UHGV virus genome: UHGV-1366990
Source of the DNA: a virus
Length of the DNA: 64,000 bases
Direction: 5' to 3' (one strand)
Of the stretch, positions 12,836 to 58,703 are shown piece after piece. How positions within the stretch are numbered: the stretch's first letter is position 1; each line of letters opens with the position of its first letter. The position numbers were made by a program, and so were the translations under genes. The notes under the pieces are model-generated. The model ran no database searches. It had not been told where the DNA came from and worked only from the letters and a program-made list of their open reading frames with translations.

Positions 12836-14731
12836 ATGGCAACTCAAAGCTTCAGCGTTGCGCCGTCCGTACAGTGGACTGAGCGTGATGCCACGCTTCA
12901 GACGTCTCCATCCGTTGTTGTTCAGGGTGCGACTGTCGGCAAATTCCAATGGGGTGAAGCAGAACTCCCTGTGTTGGTCACTGGTGGCGAAACTGGTCTG
13001 GTGAAGAAATTCTTCAAGCCAAACGATGCAACTGCCACCGACTTCTTGGTGATTGCTGACTTCCTGTCTTACAGCTCTGTTGCATGGGTGACCCGTGTGG
13101 TCGGTCCGGCGGCACGCAACGCTGTAACCAAAGGTCAGACTGCAATCCTTATCCGCAACAAACTAGACTTCGAAACTGCGTCCCCATCTGCGTCTATTAC
13201 TTGGACAGGCCGCTATGCTGGCTCTCTGGGTAACGACATTGCTGTGAACATCTGTGATGCTGCGCTGTTCCCGACCTGGGAATTTCGTAACAACTTCGCA
13301 TATGCTCCGCAGGCTGGCGAGTACCACATCGCCATCGTTGACAAAGTAGGTCGTATTACCGACTCTTCTGGCGCTGTTAGTCAGGTTGACCGTATCTCTG
13401 TATCCGGTACTGCCACCGCTGCTGGTTCCATCTCTGTTGCTGGTGAAGCCGTGGCGTACACTGACGCTGACACCCCGGCGACTCTGGCGACAAAGATCGG
13501 AACCGCGCTGACGTCTCTGTCTGACGTGTATTCTTCTGTTGTCGTGAAGTCCAACACCGTCACCGTCACCCACAAAGCAATCGGTCCTCAGGCTGCGACT
13601 GCGATTGTTCCAGACGCGAATGGTCTGACTGCTACCGCTGCCGTCACCACTGTTGGTGCTTCCGGTACGATCATCGAGAAGTATGAACTGGTGCAGACCG
13701 CTCAGGGTTCTAAGAAATCTGATGGATCCAATGCGTACTTCAAAGACGTGATCAACGGCACCTCAAATTGGGTGTACACCTTCGCCACTACCCTGGCTGC
13801 TGGTGTCATTGAACTCGAAGGTGGTGTAGACGATTACACTGGGAACCGTGTTGCGGCTATCCAGGCACTGAACAACGCCGAAGCGTATGATGCCAAGCCA
13901 GTGTTCGGTTTCTGTGAAGAACTGATTGAGCAGCAGGCACTGATCGACCTGTCCACCGAGCGTAAAGACACAGTGTCCTTTGTGTCTCCTCTTCGCGATA
14001 CGGTCGTCGGAAACCGTGGCCGTGAGATGGATGATGTTGTGGCCTGGCGTGAAAGCCTTGTTCGCGACTCCTCCTACTTCTTCATGGATGACAACTGGGC
14101 GTATGTGTACGACAAGTACAACGACAAAATGCGTTGGATTCCGGCTTGTGGCGGCACCGCAGGTGTTTGGGCGCGAAGCATTGAAATCGCGGGTATCTAC
14201 AAGTCTCCAGCGTTCCATAACCGTGGTAAATACAACAACTATAATCGAATGGCGTGGTCTGCGTCTTCTGATGAGCGTGCTGTGCTGTATCGCAACCAGA
14301 TCAACAGCATCGTCACCTTCTCCAACGAAGGCATCGTGTTGTACGGCGACAAGACTGGCCTGACCCGCCCATCGGCGTTCGACCGCATCAACGTTCGTGG
14401 TCTGTTCATTATGGCAGAGCAGAATATCGCAGCCATCGCCAAATACTACCTTGGTGAGAACAACGATGCATTCACTCGTGGGTTGTTCAGCAACGCTGTC
14501 CGCCCATATATCCGCCAGTTGGCCAACATGGGCGCGATCTATGACGGGATGGTGAAGTGTGACGAGGACAACAACACCGCTGATGTTATCGCTGCGAACC
14601 AGATGGTCGCGGGTATCTGGCTGAAACCAGAATACTCCATCAACTGGGTGTATCTGGACTTTGCTGCGGTACGTCCGGACATGGAGTTCAGCGAGATCGA
14701 AACTGGCGGTGGCATCGTAGCCGCTTCTTAA
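12836..14731 (+). CDS. tail sheath protein (T4 gp18-like)
   Basis: Shares GKFQWG, YDKYND, RW(I/V)P, FDRINVR and TRG motifs with recalled T4 gp18; ATG at 12836 with AGAAGGA Shine-Dalgarno. Confidence 0.9.
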   Translation: MATQSFSVAPSVQWTERDATLQTSPSVVVQGATVGKFQWGEAELPVLVTGGETGLVKKFFKPNDATATDFLVIADFLSYSSVAWVTRVVGPAARNAVTKGQTAILIRNKLDFETASPSASITWTGRYAGSLGNDIAVNICDAALFPTWEFRNNFAYAPQAGEYHIAIVDKVGRITDSSGAVSQVDRISVSGTATAAGSISVAGEAVAYTDADTPATLATKIGTALTSLSDVYSSVVVKSNTVTVTHKAIGPQAATAIVPDANGLTATAAVTTVGASGTIIEKYELVQTAQGSKKSDGSNAYFKDVINGTSNWVYTFATTLAAGVIELEGGVDDYTGNRVAAIQALNNAEAYDAKPVFGFCEELIEQQALIDLSTERKDTVSFVSPLRDTVVGNRGREMDDVVAWRESLVRDSSYFFMDDNWAYVYDKYNDKMRWIPACGGTAGVWARSIEIAGIYKSPAFHNRGKYNNYNRMAWSASSDERAVLYRNQINSIVTFSNEGIVLYGDKTGLTRPSAFDRINVRGLFIMAEQNIAAIAKYYLGENNDAFTRGLFSNAVRPYIRQLANMGAIYDGMVKCDEDNNTADVIAANQMVAGIWLKPEYSINWVYLDFAAVRPDMEFSEIETGGGIVAAS

Positions 14732-14739
14732 TTTACTCC

Positions 14740-14759
14740 ATGCCCTCTTCGGAGGGCAT
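14740..14759 (+). terminator. stem-loop ATGCCCTC-TTCG-GAGGGCAT
   Basis: Perfect 8-bp stem with TTCG loop right after the sheath stop; no strong U-tract. Confidence 0.4.
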
Positions 14760-14773
14760 ATTGAGGTATTGTT

Positions 14774-15076
14774 ATGAAAAGTTTTTCTCAATTTTTAGCA
14801 GAAGCAGGTCTAAAAGGTGACCTTCAGAAAGTTAAAGACTCCGTGATTGAATGGTTGGAAGACCAAGATGTAAGGCTCAAAAAGGGTGATATCGAAAATG
14901 GAGTATTTGGAGATTTCTTCCGCATAACCATTGATGATTTTGAATATACATATAATGGCAAAGAGATTAAAGTATTCGACCTGAAGAAAGATAAACAGGT
15001 TGTTAGCAAGGCTGCTGGAACTCGAGAAGCCCCAGGTGAACTCGGTAAATTGTTTAAGAAATACAGCAAAGTGTAA
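14774..15076 (+). CDS. hypothetical protein (100 aa)
   Basis: ATG with GAGGT Shine-Dalgarno; Lys/Asp-rich; inside the insertion island between sheath and tube. Confidence 0.5.
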   Translation: MKSFSQFLAEAGLKGDLQKVKDSVIEWLEDQDVRLKKGDIENGVFGDFFRITIDDFEYTYNGKEIKVFDLKKDKQVVSKAAGTREAPGELGKLFKKYSKV

Positions 15077-15081
15077 CAAGA

Positions 15082-15109
15082 CCCCGCTTCGGCGGGGTTT
15101 TAAATTTTT
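15082..15109 (+). terminator. rho-independent terminator CCCCGC-TTCG-GCGGGG + T-run
   Basis: GC stem with TTCG loop followed by TTTTAAATTTTT. Confidence 0.7.
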
Positions 15110-15131
15110 CCAGATTATTTTATTGAATTAC

Positions 15132-15159
15132 TTTACTTCTTCAATAACTCACGTATAAT
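15132..15159 (+). promoter_or_regulatory. sigma70-like early promoter (TTTACT-16 nt-TATAAT)
   Basis: -35 TTTACT at 15132-15137 and -10 TATAAT at 15154-15159; part of a repeated cassette. Confidence 0.5.
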
Positions 15160-15207
15160 TCTAAACATAAGCAGTACGACACCAACTTGAAACGAAGGAT
15201 CTATATC

Positions 15208-15564
15208 ATGACCAAGACCGAAATTAACGCTATCCTGAAAGAAATCGGCCTCTGTAACCTGAAACGCCGCATCAATCCTTACCAGCCTGCAAAGCCAGTA
15301 CGCGACAGCCAGGGAAAGATGATAAAAGGGATCTACTGTGCAGATGTTGGTCCAATGACGGTGACCAGTCCACACATTGACAGATTTAACGCTATTGTTG
15401 GGGAGTTTTGTGGTAAGGTTCTGGGTAAACTGTCTAATGATTTATGCTCCCCAGATACCAAAGTTGTAGCTTTCGGGAGCCACCTCGTCACCTTCCACCT
15501 CACCACCTTCCGTACCCACGGTGATTATCATGTGTATTATGCTCAGGTTAGCATTCGCAAATAG
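15208..15564 (+). CDS. hypothetical early protein (118 aa)
   Basis: ATG within the conserved AAGGAtCTATATCATG start region; ORF track frame. Confidence 0.55.
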   Translation: MTKTEINAILKEIGLCNLKRRINPYQPAKPVRDSQGKMIKGIYCADVGPMTVTSPHIDRFNAIVGEFCGKVLGKLSNDLCSPDTKVVAFGSHLVTFHLTTFRTHGDYHVYYAQVSIRK

Positions 15565-15570
15565 TAGTTT

Positions 15571-15598
15571 ACCCCGCTGAGGCGGGGTTTTAGTTTTC
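15571..15598. terminator. bidirectional terminator CCCCGC-TGAG-GCGGGG + T-run
   Basis: Between convergent genes 15208..15564 (+) and 15603..15878 (-). Confidence 0.65.
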
Positions 15599-15602
15599 CA
15601 GT

Positions 15603-15878
15603 TCATACCGGATAAGACCACACCCCCCCCCAGATACACCCCAACCCGGTTTCTATCGCCAGTATATCCTCTGTTTTACCTTCTACATTGTATCCAAGTT
15701 TAAGGAATTTCTCTTTCCTGAGTTTACTATCAACCCAAGATCGGCATTCAGTTTCGGTCGTCGGGTTGTTATCCAACAAACCCGGATTGCGTTTCATCGT
15801 CCCCAGCATGAATGATTTACATTCGTCACTACAATACAACGCAGCCTTCCTGGTTGGGTGAACGGTTTGTGACAGCAT
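15603..15878 (-). CDS. homing-endonuclease-derived small protein (nuclease core absent)
   Basis: N-terminal YCSDECKSF and C-terminal GYNVEGKTEDILAIETGLGCIW match the ends of the 490-aa endonuclease at 21901..23373 (FCSDACKTF / GYDVEGKTESQLATEAGLVRIW). Confidence 0.5.
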   Translation of the reverse strand: MLSQTVHPTRKAALYCSDECKSFMLGTMKRNPGLLDNNPTTETECRSWVDSKLRKEKFLKLGYNVEGKTEDILAIETGLGCIWGGVWSYPV

Positions 15879-15950
15879 GAACAATTTTTATCGGGGAATG
15901 GCATAATAAATATCCTCACTTTGGAGTATTTTAACCCCCATTTATTTCAA

Positions 15951-15960
15951 AACTAAATAT
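15951..15960 (+). promoter_or_regulatory. late-promoter-like motif AACTAAATAT
   Basis: 26 nt upstream of the tail tube ATG. Confidence 0.4.
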
Positions 15961-15985
15961 TTACACTATTCAGAGGAGAACGACC

Positions 15986-23373: not shown

Positions 23374-23436
23374 AAGAACATTTCAATAACGGGGCGAGAG
23401 GTATTATTGCCCCGTCTACTATCCGAGGGTTGTACC

Positions 23437-23661
23437 ATGTACCTGAAAAAGACTGTGAAGAAGCCGAAAGGTGATGTTGTCGAGGTGTGCCTTATTGAGG
23501 CTTATGTTGACTCCTGGAATAACGAGCAGCGCTACTTCATGGTCAACACATTGGTGTATGTGCCAGCCTCTCACTTGAACCGTGATTTCATCACAACCGA
23601 GAACATCGTCCGCTGGGAGATTGCAACGCAGTCCGATATCGACGAACACAACATTCTTTGA
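23437..23661 (+). CDS. hypothetical protein (74 aa)
   Basis: Internal ATG of ORF 23407..23661 with GAGGG upstream. Confidence 0.4.
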   Translation: MYLKKTVKKPKGDVVEVCLIEAYVDSWNNEQRYFMVNTLVYVPASHLNRDFITTENIVRWEIATQSDIDEHNIL

Positions 23662-23678
23662 AAGGAAGAATCTATATC

Positions 23679-24122
23679 ATGTGTGATAAGAATTTCATTT
23701 TCATTAGTCCCGCCAAGAAACAGTTCTTCCATAGCTCCGTTGGGGACAAGGTGGAAGGTTTCCGTAAACTCAAAGATTATCGCCTGGCATGCGGTGATGT
23801 TGATTTTCAGAGCTTCGACAATGATCGCCAGGATTTGAACGATGAGGGTTGGACAGAAGTTCCATCCCCACAGTTTATCGACGTCAAGCTGTACTACATG
23901 AAGGACAGTGGGAAGTATTATTCAGAGGGTGTGATCAAAATCAACCGTGGGGAGGCCGAGGCCGAACCTGCTAAGTCCTGGATGGAGACTATGGATAAAA
24001 TCCGCTATCTGCTTGACTCAGGCAATTTGCCTGGTTTGGTTAAAGGTGCCCGGTATGAGGTCTTCGTGACCGGAGAAGGGCATCCAGGTGGGTATCCGGC
24101 GGTATTCCGCGTTAACAACTGA
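23679..24122 (+). CDS. hypothetical early protein (147 aa)
   Basis: ATG in the conserved AAGGAAGAATCTATATCATG start region. Confidence 0.55.
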   Translation: MCDKNFIFISPAKKQFFHSSVGDKVEGFRKLKDYRLACGDVDFQSFDNDRQDLNDEGWTEVPSPQFIDVKLYYMKDSGKYYSEGVIKINRGEAEAEPAKSWMETMDKIRYLLDSGNLPGLVKGARYEVFVTGEGHPGGYPAVFRVNN

Positions 24123-24367: not shown

Positions 24368-24393
24368 ATTTTAAATTTATTCAATAAACGGGG

Positions 24394-24421
24394 TTTACTT
24401 CTTCAATAAACCCCGTATACT
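24394..24421 (+). promoter_or_regulatory. sigma70-like early promoter (TTTACT-16 nt-TATACT) inside a hairpin cassette
   Basis: The -35 lies in the loop of ACGGGGT...ACCCCGT; same architecture as the cassettes at 15132 and 58291. Confidence 0.5.
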
Positions 24422-24470
24422 TCATTCCATAAGCAGCACAACACTGACTCTGAAATGAAGGAACTATATC

Positions 24471-24788
24471 ATGAACACTCCAAAAATCTCTATCTGGGCT
24501 TTCGACGAATTCACCGCATTTGACGCTCTGATTGCTACTCTGGGTTGTGCTCCTCAGGAAGCGGAAGACGATTACTCCCGCACTAACAAAGTCAAGATGG
24601 TGAACACCACTCACGATTTCAAACACGACCTGAACTCCTTCTTGGACGTTTTGGCTACCACCCTGCCAGAAGCTGACATGGCAACTGTGCGCGGCTCTAT
24701 CTTTAAGAAGAACGGCGAAATGCGCAAGTTAGCGGGTAAAGAAGTGAAATTCGCCGCCGACGGTTTCTTCATCACCATTGAATTCTGA
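24471..24788 (+). CDS. hypothetical early protein (105 aa)
   Basis: ATG in the conserved GAAGGAACTATATCATG start region. Confidence 0.55.
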   Translation: MNTPKISIWAFDEFTAFDALIATLGCAPQEAEDDYSRTNKVKMVNTTHDFKHDLNSFLDVLATTLPEADMATVRGSIFKKNGEMRKLAGKEVKFAADGFFITIEF

Positions 24789-32325: not shown

Positions 32326-32405
32326 TCAATCTCCAGCCTGATGCTATAATGTGTGGGCGGGGCGTTCCCCGCCTATTTGAAATGATTCTTCTACACGAGG
32401 CTGAA

Positions 32406-33851: not shown

Positions 33852-34316
33852 ATGGCGCGTAATACGCTAGACATATTGAATATTTCAGCAGTCAACGATG
33901 AGGCCAGCATCGTTGATTGTATGGTTGAAGTTCAATTGAACCAAGATCGGCCAGGTATATTCCTGGGGATCAAGGAAACACTGAGTCGAATTGGGGTAAA
34001 CACGCGCCAAGAGCCGAATACTCTGTATCAGACTTGCCATATTCTTCATAAGTGTGGTAAGTATTATATCGTCCACTTTAAGCATCTATTTATGCTGGAC
34101 GGGCATTACAACGGATTTAACCGCGAAGATGTCCTGAGGATGAACCGAATCATCAAGCTGCTGGAGCAGTGGAACATGGTGAAGGTCATTCATCCTGAGC
34201 AGGTCACCGAAGCAGCCGATATGTCTCGCATTAAAGTGGTTAAACACGATCAGGTTCCTGAATGGAAGCTGGTTCCAAAATACATCATCCGGCCTACAAA
34301 GGCAAAAAGCGAATAA
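33852..34316 (+). CDS. regA: translational repressor RegA
   Basis: LYQTCHILHKCGKYYIVHFKHLFMLDG and EWKLVPKY match recalled T4 RegA; T4 gene order 45-44-62-regA is conserved. Confidence 0.85.
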   Translation: MARNTLDILNISAVNDEASIVDCMVEVQLNQDRPGIFLGIKETLSRIGVNTRQEPNTLYQTCHILHKCGKYYIVHFKHLFMLDGHYNGFNREDVLRMNRIIKLLEQWNMVKVIHPEQVTEAADMSRIKVVKHDQVPEWKLVPKYIIRPTKAKSE

Positions 34317-34332
34317 CTGGAGTCGCTATATT

Positions 34333-35205
34333 ATGACAACTACATTTTCTAAGAACGTGAATCTGAATCTGGCTTTCGGTAATGCAAAGGGCGACGTCAC
34401 ATCGCCCGACTTTGGTAAGATCCGCAATCAGGCGAAACTGGTGCTGGAAGAAACTCGTGAACTGCTAGAAGCGGCGTATTTCGACCACGAGGTGAAAATT
34501 GAGTTCACCGCATCTCCGCGAGTCCTGAAAGAACCCGTTGTTGTCGACATCAAAGACATTATGCGCCAGATCATGGATGCCCAGGGCGACATCACAACAG
34601 TCAACGACGGTTTGGCTCATATTGCTGGTTTCGACGGTGACGAATGCCTACAGCGCGTGTATGCGTCTAATATGAGCAAGTTCGTTCGCAATGAAGGTGA
34701 AGTTGTTCCAGCGCTGGAGTATTACTATAACAAAGGATTCCCACGCGAAAGTCTACGCATCGAAGGGGAATTCCCTCAGGCGTGCATCAAAGTGGTGGAC
34801 ACCATCACTGTCGACAGCAAAGAATACCCGGCTGGCAAGTTCCTGAAGAACATGGCAACCTTCAAAGAGCCTGACTTCTCTGATATGTTGACCACCGAGC
34901 CTAAGCGCCAGATCACCGAAATCATTCTGACGGGCACGGCTACCCCAGGTCGACTCGGATGCAACGAACATGCTGGTGTTGCCTACGCGCCGTTCGATTT
35001 TATTGACGAGATCGTGGGATACACCAAGATGGGTTTCCAGGCGTTCTCTGGCGAAACAGTCGAGAGCTACATTCCCGTGTTTGTTTTCAATGAAGACAAC
35101 TTCCCAACTCTACCGTTGATCTGGGGTGAATGGAAAGCCAACGTCCGTATCTATGTGGCCAGCCCAGTGCAATCATCTATCACCCAACTGACCCGTATCG
35201 ATTAA
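34333..35205 (+). CDS. MazG-like NTP pyrophosphohydrolase domain protein with extra C-terminal domain
   Basis: N-terminal LVLEETRELLEA resembles the all-alpha NTP-PPase EExxELLE motif; C-terminal 170 aa unassigned. Confidence 0.35.
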   Translation: MTTTFSKNVNLNLAFGNAKGDVTSPDFGKIRNQAKLVLEETRELLEAAYFDHEVKIEFTASPRVLKEPVVVDIKDIMRQIMDAQGDITTVNDGLAHIAGFDGDECLQRVYASNMSKFVRNEGEVVPALEYYYNKGFPRESLRIEGEFPQACIKVVDTITVDSKEYPAGKFLKNMATFKEPDFSDMLTTEPKRQITEIILTGTATPGRLGCNEHAGVAYAPFDFIDEIVGYTKMGFQAFSGETVESYIPVFVFNEDNFPTLPLIWGEWKANVRIYVASPVQSSITQLTRID

Positions 35206-36497: not shown

Positions 36498-36612
36498 AGA
36501 TTCCCTTTACTTCGTTCTTCAATAACTCTTTTCAACGTATTATTGACCTCACTTAAACGAAGCGCCCTGGCAAACGGGGCGCACATTTGAACTGAAACAG
36601 GAAGACTACACC

Positions 36613-38631
36613 ATGTCAGAATTTAAGCCCTTCGCAGTAGCTGTTAACAACAACGTGCTGGCTATGTCAGCATCTGGTCTGTTCATGACCAACATCGATA
36701 AAGATGCTCTGTGGGATCTGTATCTGTCTTCTTTCCCTGCTGGTACCAACCCGCTCTACCGTGAGCGTACCGAGCACGACTGCACCTGCTGTAAACAATT
36801 CATCCGTAACATCGGCGGTGTGGTCACCATCGACGCCGACCTGAACGTGATCTCTATCTGGGATAACATTCAGCTGGGTAACGAATACGACGTTGTCGCT
36901 GCGGCGCTGTCAGCGTATGTTAAGCAGCACGCAATCGTCGACGTGTACTTCAACGACACCAAGAAAGTTGGTGTTGAGTCGAATCACGAAATGAAAGACG
37001 GTATTGTCCGCACCTACAACCACTTCCACACCGACCTGCTGGGCAGCTATGTTCTGCGGGCAGATACCATCGCTTCTAAGAAGGGTGAAATCCGCCAGGC
37101 GATTGAAGTGTTTGAGCGCGGCCTGCGTGAACTGTCTCTGGAATCGGCTGAAATCGTTCTGGAATTGATTGACCAGAATTCTCTGTATCGCGGTGAAGAG
37201 CACAAAGCGGCAGTGCAGGCGTTCGTGGTGAACAAGACCCTGTACGAACAAACTGCAGAAGAGAAACGCGCTCTGTGGGCTTGGCGCACTGGCTACCGTG
37301 CAAACGGTCATACCCCTCACGGCATTCGTAATACCGTGATTGGCTCTCTGCTGGTAGACCTCAATGAAGGCCGGGATCTGGAAACCGCCGTGAAGTCCTT
37401 TGAAGCCAAAGTCGCTCCGACGAACTACAAGCGCCCAACCGCGCTGGTCACGAAGTCCATGATTGAAAACGCGCAGAAAGAAGTCGAAGCGCTGGGCCTG
37501 ACCGATTCACTGGGTCGCCGTTATGCCGTGTATGACGATCTGACCATCAACAATGTTCTGTTCGCCGATCTGGCAGCTCAGAAGAAGATGGACCCGTTTG
37601 CTCAGCTGGCGTCTGAAGTGAAGACTCCGACCAAGTCCCTGGACAAGGTTGAAGAGATCACGATCGACGACTTCCTGACCAACGTGTTGCCAAAGGCGCA
37701 TTCCCTGGAAGTACTGGTTGAAAACTCTCACATTGGCAACCTGATGTCCCTGATCGCTCCGGCTACCGCAGGCGCTCCTAACCTGTTCAAGTGGAACAAC
37801 GGCTTCAGCTGGTCGTACAATGGCGAAGTGGCCGACTCCATCAAAGAGCGCGTGAAGACCGCAGGCGGTAATGTCGACAGTTTCCTCCGTGTGTCACTGG
37901 CTTGGCATAACAACGACGACCTGGATCTGAGCATGAACGATCCTCTTCACAACCACGTGTATTATCACAACCGTCGTTCGACAACTGGCGCAACTCTGGA
38001 CATCGACATGAACGGTATGGACGGCATTGATCCAAACCGCCGTCCGGTGGAGAACATCTTCTTCAGCGATGAACGCAAGCTGCGTGATGGTCTGTACGAG
38101 TTCTATGTCACTAACTTCAGCCAGCGTGAAACCTGTGATATGGGCTTCGAAATCGAAGTTGAATACAAAGGCCAGACCAAGCGTTTTTCGCATCCTGGCC
38201 TGAAGCACAAAGATCGCACTCTGGCTGTTGTGATTGATGTCCGCGCTGGACAAGTGGTAGACATCCGTTCTACCCTGAAAGACGACGCTCGCTCTCAGGA
38301 AATCTGGGGCATCAAGACCTCCGTCTTCCAGAAGGTACAGCTGGTTCTGAACTCACCAAACCATTGGGACGGCGAGCAGACTGGCAACAAGCACGTGTTC
38401 TTCATCCTGGAAGGTTGTGCTAACCCTGTCGGCACCCGTGGTTTCTATAACGAATATCTGAAGCCGGAACTTGATAAACACCGCAAGGTTTTTGAAATGT
38501 TAGGCGGTAAGATTAAAGTACAGCCAAGCACTGAGCAGCTGTCCGGTCTGGGCTTCTCTACCACCCAACGCAACCACGTGTTCGTGAAGGTGAGCGGTTC
38601 GTTCAACCGCACTGTGAAAGTTGTGTTCTAA
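36613..38631 (+). CDS. hypothetical protein (672 aa), function unknown
   Basis: CAGGAAG Shine-Dalgarno; upstream TTTACTTC...TTCAATAA cassette-like element; no P-loop seen. Confidence 0.7.
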   Translation: MSEFKPFAVAVNNNVLAMSASGLFMTNIDKDALWDLYLSSFPAGTNPLYRERTEHDCTCCKQFIRNIGGVVTIDADLNVISIWDNIQLGNEYDVVAAALSAYVKQHAIVDVYFNDTKKVGVESNHEMKDGIVRTYNHFHTDLLGSYVLRADTIASKKGEIRQAIEVFERGLRELSLESAEIVLELIDQNSLYRGEEHKAAVQAFVVNKTLYEQTAEEKRALWAWRTGYRANGHTPHGIRNTVIGSLLVDLNEGRDLETAVKSFEAKVAPTNYKRPTALVTKSMIENAQKEVEALGLTDSLGRRYAVYDDLTINNVLFADLAAQKKMDPFAQLASEVKTPTKSLDKVEEITIDDFLTNVLPKAHSLEVLVENSHIGNLMSLIAPATAGAPNLFKWNNGFSWSYNGEVADSIKERVKTAGGNVDSFLRVSLAWHNNDDLDLSMNDPLHNHVYYHNRRSTTGATLDIDMNGMDGIDPNRRPVENIFFSDERKLRDGLYEFYVTNFSQRETCDMGFEIEVEYKGQTKRFSHPGLKHKDRTLAVVIDVRAGQVVDIRSTLKDDARSQEIWGIKTSVFQKVQLVLNSPNHWDGEQTGNKHVFFILEGCANPVGTRGFYNEYLKPELDKHRKVFEMLGGKIKVQPSTEQLSGLGFSTTQRNHVFVKVSGSFNRTVKVVF

Positions 38632-43493: not shown

Positions 43494-43522
43494 AAGTCCC
43501 CAACAAACGTTGGGGATTTTTA
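43494..43522 (+). terminator. terminator TCCCCAAC-AAAC-GTTGGGGA-TTTTT
   Basis: 8-bp stem plus U-tract. Confidence 0.65.
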
Positions 43523-43532
43523 CTTTTAGGGG

Positions 43533-43561
43533 TTTACTTCCTCTAAGGAATGTCCTATTAT
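43533..43561 (+). promoter_or_regulatory. sigma70-like early promoter (TTTACT-17 nt-TATTAT)
   Basis: Same TTTACTTC -35 context as the other cassettes; followed by TTCAATAA. Confidence 0.45.
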
Positions 43562-43612
43562 TCAATAACTGGCGAACGATGGGTTCACCGGGTTGAAAGG
43601 TAAGATTATATC

Positions 43613-43852
43613 ATGAAGAACAAAATGGTCGAAACTTCAGTAGAGATTGATCGCAATTGGGGATTGCTCCGCGCTAAAGGGTTCCGCCGTGTGTATGCGA
43701 CCAAAGAAGTCTACGCACAGCGTCGTGACGTTATCATCAGCAAGAAAGGCAAAGAGTGGGTTGCTGAAGAAGTTGATGTCGAGACAGGCATCGTAGGAAA
43801 GGTAAAGGCCAAGGCCGCGATCCTCTTCGCTCTTCTGAAGCACATCAGTTAA
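43613..43852 (+). CDS. hypothetical basic protein (79 aa)
   Basis: ATG in the conserved AGGTAAGATTATATCATG start region. Confidence 0.5.
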   Translation: MKNKMVETSVEIDRNWGLLRAKGFRRVYATKEVYAQRRDVIISKKGKEWVAEEVDVETGIVGKVKAKAAILFALLKHIS

Positions 43853-43911
43853 TTCTATAACTTTGGGCGGGGTATGATTACCCCGTCTATTTGAAACCAA
43901 GAGACTATATC

Positions 43912-44286
43912 ATGAAAAAGTTAATCCTCGCTGTTGCCCTGCTGGGCGCTTCCTTTGCTGCTGTTTCCGCCCCTCCTGTCATCACCGGAGTGTCTACCAA
44001 CGGTGTTTATGCTTTCAAGGCGTATGGCCAAGACCTCGTTCTGTATAAGAACGGGAAGATGATTGAGCGCTGCGTATCAGACGACGTGAATCGTGGGATC
44101 GACAATCAGGGTAGCCCATACGTCCTGGACATCTATTCCTGCTCCAACGGGACGAAGTCCTTTGGCGTCAAGACCTTTGGCAACGTCGCCGACGGTGGCT
44201 GGGGCTTCATGTTCGAAACCCGCAACCACCACCCGGTCAAGACCATGCAAGAAGAGTTCTTGATCTCTGTCGGGGGTACGTTATGA
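43912..44286 (+). CDS. exported protein with signal peptide (124 aa)
   Basis: MKKLILAVALLGASFAAVSA-PP: signal peptide with AxA site; conserved start region. Confidence 0.6.
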   Translation: MKKLILAVALLGASFAAVSAPPVITGVSTNGVYAFKAYGQDLVLYKNGKMIERCVSDDVNRGIDNQGSPYVLDIYSCSNGTKSFGVKTFGNVADGGWGFMFETRNHHPVKTMQEEFLISVGGTL

Positions 44287-47210: not shown

Positions 47211-47266
47211 TCAATAACCTCGGGCGGCTTATCATAAAGCTGCCCTTTCATTTGAGAGACTATATC

Positions 47267-47929
47267 ATGGAAAAACTTTATTCTATTATCGTCGGTCCTG
47301 ATCCTGACGGATTATTCTTCGCCCCGTTGTCTTATATTGCCCACGCCCGTATCGGTAGCCATTACGCATATTGCACACGTGGCCACGACGGTTCCAATAT
47401 CCTCCATTATAACCGCATGAACGATTTCCTGGCACTTCAACCAGAAGATGTTGTGCTGGCGCGTCGCGTGTTCATCGACTTCAACGCTATGCACAACAAC
47501 GAAATTGACGCTCGCTATCATGCCATGCGTTCTATGGAAGGGGGAGACTGCATTTATCGCATCGACCATTTTAGTGAGTTTACCGAATGTATTGATTGGT
47601 TCGTTTCAGAAAAGACGTTGGGTGAAAGAATCGTCACAACTCCGTGGGCGCATGCGGAACAACTTCGTGTGTCTACCGATGCGTACAAAGAAGTCGACAA
47701 TCTGTGCAACAAGTTCCGCATCTCGGTGACCTGTAATCAAGACCTGGGCGAAGAGATACAATGGACAGCTGAGTCTCCTCATTTCAGTGGCCTGGTGATG
47801 ACGGCCGAAACCCGTTCCCGTGCTGTTGTCCAGTTAGTACTCTGGGCGTTCTACCAGCGCACCCCGTTCTCATACATGGGACAGAAAGAGATTGATGAAC
47901 TCCTGAAGTCTCACGCGGTGGAGGTGTAA
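47267..47929 (+). CDS. hypothetical protein (220 aa)
   Basis: ATG in the conserved GAGAGACTATATCATG start region. Confidence 0.55.
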   Translation: MEKLYSIIVGPDPDGLFFAPLSYIAHARIGSHYAYCTRGHDGSNILHYNRMNDFLALQPEDVVLARRVFIDFNAMHNNEIDARYHAMRSMEGGDCIYRIDHFSEFTECIDWFVSEKTLGERIVTTPWAHAEQLRVSTDAYKEVDNLCNKFRISVTCNQDLGEEIQWTAESPHFSGLVMTAETRSRAVVQLVLWAFYQRTPFSYMGQKEIDELLKSHAVEV

Positions 47930-48496: not shown

Positions 48497-48775
48497 ATGA
48501 ATCGTACTGAATTTGTTGCCCACATTGCTTCGACCCAGAATATCACCAAAGGCGAAGCGGAGAAAGTAGTGGCATCCTTTATCAACGGTGTTAAAACTGC
48601 AGTTGCTGCGGGCGCATCTGTACAGCTGGTCGGCTTCGGTGCGTTCGAAGTGAAACACCAAGAAGCGCGTGAAGGCCGCAACCCTCTGGACGGCCAGACC
48701 ATTCAGATCGCGGCGAAAAACGTTGTGAAATTCAAAGTGGGCGAAGGTCTGAAGAACGCTGCCAACGGCAAGTAA
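48497..48775 (+). CDS. HU/IHF-like histone-like DNA-binding protein
   Basis: GFGAFEV...R.GRNP.DGQTIQIAAK...F is the HU-family signature; GGAGAAA Shine-Dalgarno. Confidence 0.8.
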   Translation: MNRTEFVAHIASTQNITKGEAEKVVASFINGVKTAVAAGASVQLVGFGAFEVKHQEAREGRNPLDGQTIQIAAKNVVKFKVGEGLKNAANGK

Positions 48776-51387: not shown

Positions 51388-51432
51388 AGTTTCATTCCTC
51401 TTTCTATAAAACCAGTTTGGGATATTTATATC

Positions 51433-51960
51433 ATGATAGAAATTTATTCTGACGGGGGTTCTAACCCGAAGACCAACCAGGCCGCAGGCTGGGCATTTGT
51501 CATCAGGCCAATAACGGGTATGCAATGGAAGGTGTTCTTCGGTCATCTACCTCCCCCGTCCACCAACAATATCGCCGAGTTGTTGGGTGTGACCAACGCA
51601 TTGAAGCTACTGTGGGCATTCTCAGGAAAGGGTGAGCGCAGAATACCAAAGGCAACAATTTGGTCTGACAGCCAATATGCCATCAAGAGTGTCACCGAAT
51701 GGCGAACGAAGTGGGAGTATCAGGGGTTCCCAGAAAAGAACGTTGAACTCATCAAAGATCTGTTCAGAATCTATGATCTCGTTTGTTCAATTTGTGATGT
51801 TGAACTAAAATGGGTTAAGGGTCATGCGGGACACGAAGGCAACGAACTTGCCGATGACTGGGCTACAGCAGCCAAAAACGACAGCAACTTCCTGATTGAG
51901 AATGACAAGATCTCGGTGAGGAAGGTTGTTGGATCTTTTGATGAATTTATCGGTATCTGA
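51433..51960 (+). CDS. rnh: ribonuclease H (RNase HI type)
   Basis: IEIYSDGG, NNIAELLG, IWSDSQYAI, KGHAGHEGNELADDWA: canonical RNase HI catalytic motifs. Confidence 0.85.
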   Translation: MIEIYSDGGSNPKTNQAAGWAFVIRPITGMQWKVFFGHLPPPSTNNIAELLGVTNALKLLWAFSGKGERRIPKATIWSDSQYAIKSVTEWRTKWEYQGFPEKNVELIKDLFRIYDLVCSICDVELKWVKGHAGHEGNELADDWATAAKNDSNFLIENDKISVRKVVGSFDEFIGI

Positions 51961-57007: not shown

Positions 57008-57622
57008 ATGACGATGACAACGTTGAAGGCCATGGCCTTGTCCGTGACCTTTACCATTGCCAGCGGGAATGTGCACGCTTCCCAAAATACAAGTCAATGT
57101 GTTTATAATTTCTCCGAGCAACAACTTAATACGATGGCAACCGCCTATCACGTAGGCAAGACACAAGATCTTGGCTACACGCTGGCCGCCATATCTTGGC
57201 GAGAGAGCCGCGCTGGTGAAGATGTAGTGTCAATGCGATACGGCCTCAAAGCGGCCAACATGGGAGCCTTTCAGAACAAGGTGAAGACAGTTGGTGATCG
57301 CGAAGGTTGTAAGAATCGCAAGTGCTATGCCAATGTCGCCATAAAGTTGCTGACCGACCAAGAATATGCCGCGCAAGCCGCCCTCGATGAGATGCAGTTC
57401 TGGCTGACCTATCACAATCAGAATATCCGCAAATCCCTCTCCTCTTACAATGCTGGCTTCGCCCGTAATCCTGCATCGAACGCTTATGCTGCCGACGTCG
57501 TGAAGAAAGCTAAATATCTTCAGAAATGTGTGTCCTTCGAAGGCCGGACCATCTCCGAGGTAGATCCTCAGGTGATCGCCATGAACAAGCACACAATAGA
57601 GAAACTGAAGAGGACAAGATAA
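57008..57622 (+). CDS. lytic transglycosylase (SLT domain) with N-terminal signal/SAR-like segment; endolysin candidate
   Basis: AISWRES (catalytic Glu-Ser), AANMGAFQ, YNAG motifs; hydrophobic N-terminus MTMTTLKAMALSVTFTIASGNVHA. Confidence 0.6.
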   Translation: MTMTTLKAMALSVTFTIASGNVHASQNTSQCVYNFSEQQLNTMATAYHVGKTQDLGYTLAAISWRESRAGEDVVSMRYGLKAANMGAFQNKVKTVGDREGCKNRKCYANVAIKLLTDQEYAAQAALDEMQFWLTYHNQNIRKSLSSYNAGFARNPASNAYAADVVKKAKYLQKCVSFEGRTISEVDPQVIAMNKHTIEKLKRTR

Positions 57623-58272: not shown

Positions 58273-58292
58273 AAAAGGGGCTTTTGCCCCTT
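58273..58292 (+). terminator. terminator AGGGGC-TTTT-GCCCCT
   Basis: Hairpin whose 3' flank TTTACTTC is the -35 of the next promoter. Confidence 0.6.
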
Positions 58293-58319
58293 TACTTCTT
58301 CAATATCCTTCCCTATACT
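58291..58319 (+). promoter_or_regulatory. sigma70-like early promoter (TTTACT-17 nt-TATACT)
   Basis: Downstream leader CATAAGCAGTACGACACCAACTTGAA is identical to the leader at 15167-15192. Confidence 0.5.
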
Positions 58320-58367
58320 TCATTCCATAAGCAGTACGACACCAACTTGAATAGCAGGAACTATATC

Positions 58368-58703
58368 ATGACACAACTCAAGAACTTCACCGCCGATGAC
58401 ATGTTCACCTTCCAGGGTGCTGAGCACTTTGCTGACGGCTCTGTACCTCGCATCTACTACTTCTCCGACGAAGAAATGGAAGATTTCTTCGCCCTGATGG
58501 AAAAGGACTACGAACCAGACGACTTCGTTTATATCATCCATCACGCCGAAGGACTGACATTGGGTTGGACGGCCAGCAATGAACCAGAAGAAGTAAACTT
58601 CCCTGAAGGTATCATGTCAGAGCGCGTCGAATATCTACTGGAAGCCCTGGACCCCCACACCCTCCCGCTCTGGGCGATGTCTGTAGCCCAAGTTCAAAAA
58701 TAA
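58368..58703 (+). CDS. hypothetical acidic early protein (111 aa)
   Basis: ATG in the conserved GCAGGAACTATATCATG start region. Confidence 0.55.
   Translation: MTQLKNFTADDMFTFQGAEHFADGSVPRIYYFSDEEMEDFFALMEKDYEPDDFVYIIHHAEGLTLGWTASNEPEEVNFPEGIMSERVEYLLEALDPHTLPLWAMSVAQVQK

Follow-up and report, generated by a model that had tools for sequence, protein, structure and literature searches.

In T4-type phages, a promoter-early stem-loop (PeSL) is defined as a stem-loop that lies beside or overlaps a sigma70-like promoter (Arbiol et al. 2010, PMC2839356; Comeau et al. 2014, PMC4122927). The PeSL promoter follows the consensus TTTACW-N17-TAYWAT in T4 and PST, and a Shine-Dalgarno (SD) sequence and a start codon form the 3' extremity of the element. 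PeSLs occur in many copies by variable small open reading frames (ORFs), degraded half copies are also found, and crossovers have been mapped between the -10 box or the SD and the ATG (PMC4122927, PMC2839356). Promoter, terminator, and mini-circle activities of PeSLs were shown experimentally in RB49 and phi1 (PMC4122927, PMC2839356). Here, we describe a multi-copy cassette of this kind in a 64,000-nucleotide (nt) stretch of viral DNA, UHGV virus genome UHGV-1366990. The whole stretch is referred to as the window, and position 1 is its first letter. The cassette ends in a 10-mer, YTATATCATG, that consists of a spacer and the start codon of a gene. A first-pass annotation of the window described this 10-mer as part of a shared translation-initiation module and proposed that the genes carrying it are a plausible target set of the translational repressor RegA.

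Consensus ribosome-binding sites (RBSs) of T4 early genes are reportedly the subject of work by Liebig and Rueger from 1989; the likeness to the cassette lies in the idea of a promoter and RBS consensus common to early genes. In T4 and RB69, RegA binds mRNA over the AUG or between it and the SD, at sites that are A+U-rich and unstructured (Uzan & Miller 2010, PMC3014915). The phage represented by the window belongs to the Ackermannviridae, subfamily Aglimvirinae, and is Agtrevirus-like; it is not T4-type in the narrow sense. Its relative Escherichia phage ZQ1 is 97-98% identical to it.

The 10-mer and the cassette that it closes

YTATATCATG has eight exact matches in the window (15201, 23672, 24464, 43606, 43905, 47260, 51426, and 58361), all of them on the + strand and all ending on the ATG of an ORF. 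The copies are named below by the first position of the gene that they open. Dinucleotide-preserving shuffles of the window held 0.18 copies on average and one copy at most, and 0 of 100 shuffles reached eight, which bears out the first-pass claim that eight copies at gene starts are far above chance. The ORFs opened by the 10-mer encode 79-220 amino acids (aa). Each matches a PHROG family over its full length, the match begins at profile residue 1 for seven of the eight, and the starts agree with those annotated in ZQ1. One of the genes encodes RNase H; the other seven are without known function. In other words, the repeated CTATATCATG string is real and stands at the starts of real genes, and the description of a shared initiation module is upheld. 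The upstream context GAA-N-GAAGGAA, said to be usual, holds roughly. Six of the eight copies read (T/C)TGAA-N2-4 followed by a purine-rich SD, but copies 47267 and 51433 carry only TTTGAGAGA and TTTGGGATA upstream.

Relaxing the pattern to CYAYAYYATG gains two sites, at genes 34333 (CTATATT) and 36613 (CTACACC), both of which are gene starts, and adds no non-start site. None of the eight window copies of the 10-mer lies clearly inside a gene; the corresponding counts are two of 13 for ZQ1 and three of 11 for Vi01. As a background set, 65 gene starts were carried over from ZQ1 to the window. A late-type motif, CTAAATA, lies within 130 nt upstream of none of the eight module genes and of 9 of the 57 others. 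The module is not as common upstream of late genes or inside ORFs as it is at these starts; it appears to be restricted to non-late genes, which are presumably expressed early. The CTAAATA motif is found 30-50 nt upstream of late-type genes, with sites near 2034, 8534, 12836, 15986, 19528, 26225, 29419, and 62445. It is probably the core of a gp55-type late promoter in Ackermannviridae; the CBA120 paper called the late consensus not yet identified (2011, PMC3184105).

Which part of the module is specific? The generic initiation region of the 65 mapped starts reads (T)TGAGGA-N-ATC-ATG, and ATC occupies -3..-1 in 15 of them, including those of the late portal, scaffold, and major capsid genes. 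ATC at this position is a genome-wide pre-start preference that is independent of the module, and ATCATG itself occurs in 139-146 copies per genome. Because the ATCATG half is generic, the specific part of the module is CTAT at -7..-4 together with the upstream context.

Rather than standing free as a motif, the 10-mer closes a composite cassette at its 3' end. The cassette is made up, in order, of a GC stem-loop, a sigma70-like promoter (TTTACTTCTTCAATAA-N6-TATAMT), ~40 nt of leader, a weak SD rich in purines, the spacer CTATATC, and ATG. It is present in full at copies 15208, 24471, 58368, and 43613 (cassettes A, B, C, and D in Table 1). At copies 43912 and 47267, and at variant 36613, the stem-loop is followed directly by the initiation region, and copies 23679 and 51433 consist of the initiation region only. 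About 80 nt are common to cassettes A, B, and C, namely TTTACTTCTTCAATAA-N6-TATA(A/C)T, the leader CATAAGCAGYACRACAC, and TTGAA-N-GAAGGAA-CTATATC-ATG. Cassette D has the same -35 box, a -10 box, and another leader. The copies fall into direct-repeat families, D2-D5 for the cassette and D6 for the stem-loops.

A consensus promoter scan gave its best score to the site at 15132 (TTTACT-16-TATAAT), which agrees with the consensus at 10 of 12 positions, and also called sites at 24394, 43533, and 58291. Terminator-like stems were called at 15078, 15571, 43497, 47222, and 58270. At all four promoters, a GC-rich stem-loop lies directly upstream of the -35 box or overlaps it (15080-15098, 24388-24416, 43497-43516, and 58275-58292). 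Transcription from cassette A would start near 15166. The LIMEstone1 record lists, at orthologous sites, a 'putative early promoter' (24388), an early promoter and a terminator (43497), and a 'middle promoter' and a terminator (58275). The whole window gave no match in Rfam at the gathering threshold; thus the conserved leader is not a known RNA family. Module genes are associated with early-type promoters and with weak SDs. TTTAC-N17/18-TAnnnT occurs within 130 nt of four of the eight module genes and of 1 of the 57 others (Fisher p=0.0005), and the mean SD pairing energy is -4.35 kcal/mol in module genes vs -6.19 kcal/mol in the others (p=0.004).

Family-wide spread and recombination at the cassettes

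The 85-nt cassette at 15128-15212 matches 283 phage records at 781 places, with 2-4 BLAST-detectable copies per genome. Nearly all of these records are phages of genera that Ackermannviridae typically infect (Salmonella, Klebsiella, Escherichia, Dickeya, Serratia, Shigella, and Enterobacter), and identity reaches 97.6% in Kuttervirus, which belongs to a different subfamily. The whole ZQ1 genome has 13 copies of TATATCATG on a single strand, 11 of them at gene starts, and Vi01 has 11 copies of the 10-mer, seven or eight of them at gene starts. A position weight matrix (PWM) trained on the eight window sites found 16 matches in ZQ1 and 12 in Vi01, compared with ~1 in shuffled genomes, and nearly all of the matches precede ORFs. 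Among the loci compared, 31 distinct cassette copies form about five subtypes that differ in the leader and have the stem-loop, the TTTACTT box, and the initiation end in common. The ortholog comparison drew on single-protein locus searches that gave eight and five loci, too few for a family-wide survey. A search for the exact 14-mer GGAACTATATCATG across viral contigs gave at least 119 matches, most of them in contigs of a length unsuited to Ackermannviridae and most likely due to chance, and was uninformative.

Cassettes that are otherwise 95-100% conserved vary at few positions, and the spacer is among these (it also reads CTACACC, CTACATC, CTATATT, or CCACATC). The orthologs of the 23679 module likewise vary there, reading CTATATC, CTATATT, CTACATC, or CCACATC. 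A CTATATC-type spacer is also kept across subfamilies at orthologs that are without the remainder of the cassette. Vi01_113c, the Vi01 ortholog of gene 47267, keeps CTATATC at 73% protein identity, and its hairpin sequence differs. Retention is partial at RNase H, where the spacers read TTATATC in the window, CTTATAC in Vi01, and TTTATAC in phiMAM1. Translation efficiency behind a weak SD and an operator for RegA or another factor are candidate reasons for the retention of the spacer.

Comparison of the window with Vi01, LIMEstone1, and Serratia phage 2050H1 showed 90-100% identity over -120..-1 and background identity directly after the ATG. Several relatives have non-orthologous genes behind one and the same cassette. 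Genes have been replaced behind cassettes B and C, and the gene behind cassette B in LIMEstone1 is unrelated to that of the window. In Kuttervirus 'barely', cassette A is 97-98% identical, first five codons included. Its slot there corresponds to window 58368 instead of the sheath-tube gap, and the protein that follows shares only 30% identity with the 15208 product.

Breakpoints at the cassettes are also evident in ZQ1, which carries two clean insertions that are absent from the window, one of 356 bp at 43497 and one of 559 bp at 43889. Two copies of the cassette-D stem-loop and -35 region flank the first, and two modules composed of a stem-loop and TTTGAAA...CTATATCATG flank the second. The single module of the window at 43865-43914 is a chimera that has the hairpin of the left copy and the SD of the right copy flanking the 559-bp insertion. 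In LIMEstone1, Vi01, and others, denV occupies the slot of this module, and elsewhere the DenV slot is empty or otherwise filled.

Table 1. Cassettes, initiation modules, and related features of the window, with the regA homolog
Feature	Position	Strand	Remark
Cassette A: GC stem-loop (terminator-like), then AT-rich stretch	15080..15098	+	10-pair stem, T tail; repeat family D6
Cassette A: sigma70-like promoter TTTACT-N16-TATAAT	15132..15159	+	best promoter-like site; promoter family
Cassette A: conserved leader core CATAAGCAGTACGACAC	15166..15182	+	repeat families D2, D5
Initiation module TTGAAACGAAGGATCTATATCATG of gene 15208-15564 (118 aa, unknown function)	15187..15210	+	site of the first-pass annotation
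Terminator-like stem-loop closing the one-gene unit 15208-15564	15571..15588	+	stem call; family D6
Initiation module only, gene 23679-24122 (147 aa)	23658..23681	+	without promoter or hairpin
Cassette B: stem-loop ACGGGG...CCCCGT enclosing the -35 box; sigma70-like promoter TTTACT-N16-TATACT	24388..24421	+	
Cassette B: leader CATAAGCAGCACAACAC and module CTGAAATGAAGGAACTATATCATG of gene 24471-24788 (105 aa)	24428..24473	+	
Variant spacer CTATATTATG of gene 34333-35205, directly 3' of regA	34319..34335	+	identical in Vi01
regA homolog	33852..34316	+	directly 3' of clamp-loader genes; own initiation region without module
Variant: stem-loop and TTTGAACTGAAACAGGAAGACTACACCATG before gene 36613-38631	36562..36615	+	TTTACTTC at 36506
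Cassette D: stem-loop TCCCCAACAAACGTTGGGGA and sigma70-like promoter TTTACT-N17-TATTAT	43497..43561	+	left breakpoint of the ZQ1 356-bp insertion
Module TTGAAAGGTAAGATTATATCATG of gene 43613-43852 (79 aa)	43593..43615	+	
Stem-loop GGGCGGGGTATGATTACCCCGTC and module TTGAAACCAAGAGACTATATCATG of gene 43912-44286 (124 aa)	43865..43914	+	
Terminator-like stem-loop and module TTTGAGAGACTATATCATG of gene 47267-47929 (220 aa)	47222..47269	+	
Module variant TTTGGGATATTTATATCATG of RNase H gene 51433-51960	51416..51435	+	
Cassette C: stem-loop AAGGGGCTTTTGCCCCTT abutting sigma70-like promoter TTTACT-N17-TATACT	58275..58319	+	
Cassette C: leader CATAAGCAGTACGACAC and module TTGAATAGCAGGAACTATATCATG of gene 58368-58703 (111 aa)	58326..58370	+	family D5

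Individual sites have features of their own. ORF 23407-23661 ends on the TGA within the TTGAAA of the 23679 module. The RNase H start codon sits in a perfect 10-bp palindrome, TATCATGATA (51429-51438), and the 45-nt gap upstream of it is shared with a divergently oriented gene. In cassette B, CTTCATT (24419-24425, over the -10 box and the discriminator) is complementary to AATGAAG in the SD region (24454-24460), and the SD could be masked in read-through transcripts and not in transcripts from the cassette's own promoter; the pairing is missing from cassette A. SD sequestration as a general mechanism was rejected because this pairing is found in cassette B only. The string TTCAATAA occurs 11 times compared with ~2 expected, on the + strand at 15140, 23382, 24380, 24402, 36518, 40303, 43561, 48417, and 58267 and on the - strand at 15120 and 45223. 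It lies within cassette promoter spacers and directly 5' of intergenic stem-loops; it may accompany the terminator/promoter units as a further element, or be a footprint left by recombination. Around cassette A, ZQ1 carries extra sequence within 13727-15511 that is missing from the window at 15565-15985. LIMEstone1 and Vi01, which are without the 15208 gene, carry other endonuclease genes in their sheath-tube gap.

Readings of the module

Why do so many gene starts end in the same 10-mer? The probable explanation is a PeSL-type cassette whose 3' end supplies the 10-mer as spacer and start codon. In its full form, the cassette would comprise a GC-rich stem-loop acting as a terminator or attenuator, a host sigma70-type promoter, a leader of ~40 nt, a weak SD (GAAGGAA or AAGAGA), the G-free CYAYAYC, and the AUG. 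It would provide small, mostly accessory, non-structural genes, RNase H among them and DenV in relatives, with their own early transcription and a standard ribosome-loading site. Its promoter activity, terminator activity, and early timing are predicted from the sequence. Because the copies are nearly identical, they would serve as homology for recombination, which would insert, delete, or swap the downstream ORF with a junction at or just before the ATG. Truncated forms, either a stem-loop with an initiation region or an initiation region by itself, would persist at internal or older slots. The spacer may promote initiation as an unstructured, S1-friendly A/U/C tract that compensates for the weak SD. 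As a result, common descent and gene conversion of the cassette, together with selection for its role in expression, would account for the many identical copies.

The comparison with PeSLs of T4-type phages is close. The order of the parts is the same, with a stem-loop and a sigma70-like promoter followed by an SD and a start codon at the 3' end. The promoter, TTTACT-N16/17-TATAMT, fits the T4/PST consensus; the stem-loops lie upstream of or overlap the promoter boxes; and several copies per genome stand by small ORFs of unknown function. Furthermore, the copies bracket insertions, deletions, and gene replacements, the crossovers fall between the -10 box and the ATG, and degraded 'half' copies exist. 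Every sequence-level trait of a PeSL is found in the cassette, which is real, present in many copies, spread across the family, and, as a probable early-gene expression cassette of the PeSL kind, only moderately surprising. There are also differences. The cassette belongs to Ackermannviridae, whereas PeSLs were described in Straboviridae, and a literature search found no report linking the two. There are only ~5 full and 10-16 partial copies per genome, several of them inside the structural-gene block. Including its 40-nt leader and fixed SD-AUG spacer, the cassette is 90-100% identical across subfamilies, whereas T4-type PeSLs share a loose consensus. The activities of PeSLs are experimental in RB49 and phi1, whereas the cassette is known from sequence alone.

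Several points weigh against a PeSL-type cassette as the whole explanation. Half of the eight window copies have less than the full cassette, and cassette descent alone does not explain copies 23679 and 51433, which have neither promoter nor hairpin. The spacer that is kept where the rest of the cassette is absent points to selection on the initiation region itself. The predicted accessibility of module initiation regions did not differ from that of other genes (p=0.30) and is thus not distinctive, which leaves the step of an unstructured enhancer unsupported. The literature searched held no transcriptomics, transcription-start, expression-timing, or recombination experiments for Ackermannviridae.

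An alternative that appears unlikely but retains some weight is that the module is a RegA operator. The RegA of the phage would bind CYAYAYC-AUG, compete with 30S subunits, and shut early mRNAs off later in infection. That the window encodes RegA, as the first-pass annotation stated, is confirmed by gene 33852-34316 (Pfam PF01818, E=2e-34; T4 RegA structure 1REG, E=4e-26), which lies directly after gene 62 as in T4 and RB69. The homolog keeps T18, R21, and W81 of the T4 RNA-binding surface. However, of the five residues through which T4 RegA is held to contact RNA, two are changed (K14 to G and F106 to H), and the specificity of T4 RegA is therefore not transferable. Like the operators of T4 and RB69, the module would lie on prereplicative mRNAs at the AUG or between it and the SD, is A+U-rich (7 of 10 positions of CUAUAUCAUG), and has no required structure. 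The operators of T4 are degenerate, have a poly(A) tract and UUAUG, and are not a sharp 10-mer, whereas the candidate operator predicted here is a sharp CYAYAYC with C residues. CUAUAUCAUG is without poly(A), UUAUG, or UAA, and is unlike the SELEX consensus AAAAUUGUUAUGUAA of T4 or the UAA repeats of RB69 (PMC3014915).

The distribution of the module among genes is also divided in what it suggests about RegA. Its restriction to non-late genes, the retention of its spacer without the rest of the cassette, and the CTATATT of the gene directly 3' of regA are consistent with an operator. So are rIIA and rIIB, which are RegA targets in T4 and have module-like initiation regions in ZQ1 and Vi01. Outside the window, the rIIA start reads TTTGA(A/C)A..GAATAGGAATTCTATACT-ATG and the rIIB start G(G/A)GAACTACAAG-ATG (30632 and 33420 in the ZQ1 record; 1 and 2775 in Vi01). 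Against this, the orthologs of the classical T4/RB69 targets gp45, gp44, gp62, regA, and dexA are without the module; only rIIA and rIIB are module-like. Within cassettes, the spacer is among the least conserved positions, and the accessibility of the module regions is not distinctive. The excess of identical copies is more simply explained by a repeated, recombining regulatory cassette that ends in the 10-mer. Of the proposed RegA target set, the shared initiation module, the RegA gene, and the avoidance of late genes stand, but nothing ties the module specifically to RegA. The start of the gp44 homolog is itself ambiguous (32349-32400). The ATG annotated in ZQ1 (32382) follows a GC hairpin and TTTGAA and is without SD or spacer, the longest ORF begins at 32349, and Vi01 annotates another start, with an SD.

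The operator reading is compatible with the PeSL-type cassette and need not compete with it; the cassette would deliver promoter and operator together. It is quite unlikely that the cassette is a 'plug-and-play regulated slot' that also delivers a sharp RNA operator, CYAYAYC-AUG, behind a deliberately weak SD, for RegA or another phage RNA-binding factor. If this were true, a gene captured by recombination at a cassette would automatically enter a regulon of ~12-16 genes, turned on early and then repressed at the level of translation. A first sharp consensus for RegA operators would follow, and gene shuffling would have a mechanistic link to post-transcriptional control.

It is very unlikely that the module is a factor-independent translational enhancer, in which a G-free YA-repeat spacer and ATC give the best ribosome loading and arose independently at each gene, with no cassette descent. 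ATC at -3..-1 is common genome-wide, late genes included, the weak SDs of module genes would need compensation, and module-only copies exist whose spacer tolerates transitions (CYAYAYY). However, highly expressed late genes (capsid, portal, and sheath) have no CTAT at -7..-4, and the accessibility of module regions is the same as that of other genes. Convergence also leaves unexplained the similarity over 60-120 nt upstream in half of the copies, which tracks the recombination breakpoints.

A signal at the DNA level is hardly tenable. The 10-mer would then be a promoter, sigma70 or gp55-type late, or a nuclease or recombinase site. CTATATC is loosely like the late-type CTAAATA upstream of structural genes, recombination junctions fall at the module, and site-specific recombination was left open by the PeSL authors. 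Against these, every copy lies directly against the ATG on the coding strand, and the junctions are explained by ordinary homology that ends where the genes differ. Geometry excludes the 10-mer as a promoter of either type. Transcripts from a -10 element at -7..-1 would begin within the ORF, there is no -35 box at a workable distance of 16-18 nt (TTGAAA is only 9 nt upstream), and the late-type CTAAATA lies 30-50 nt upstream. Chance or composition is a negligible explanation even though ATCATG is common, being refuted by the shuffle counts, by the PWM matches in ZQ1 and Vi01, by the position of all copies at gene starts on a single strand, and by conservation of the module in other genera.

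Neighbouring genes and early expression in Ackermannviridae

Other genes of the window bear regulatory labels. An HU-type DNA-binding protein is encoded at 48497-48775 (PF00216, E=6e-29), and the 'transcription factor 1' named in the record of one relative at a matched region may be this gene. Relatives label ORF 57008-57622 / 57233-57622 'putative RegB', a label that looks unsupported. Pfam gave no RegB match for the 57233-57622 ORF and, for the longer frame, only a sub-threshold SLT transglycosylase. The idea that module SDs without GGAG escape a RegB-like nuclease was dropped because 'putative RegB' is without Pfam support.

Ackermannviridae find wide use in biocontrol and engineering, and their early gene regulation is essentially undescribed. 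For CBA120, the authors state that no early promoters could be identified (PMC3184105), and a 2024 review of Ackermannviridae makes no mention of promoters, transcription, or terminators and does not have RegA in its text. The RegA-regulon reading, which is attractive but unsupported, is here corrected and made precisely testable. What the cassette adds is a concrete consensus for a predicted early promoter, leader, and RBS of the family, of use in annotation, and an explanation of where small accessory genes come, go, and swap in Ackermannviridae genomes. For phage engineering, its copies are ready-made slots in which genes could be inserted and expressed.

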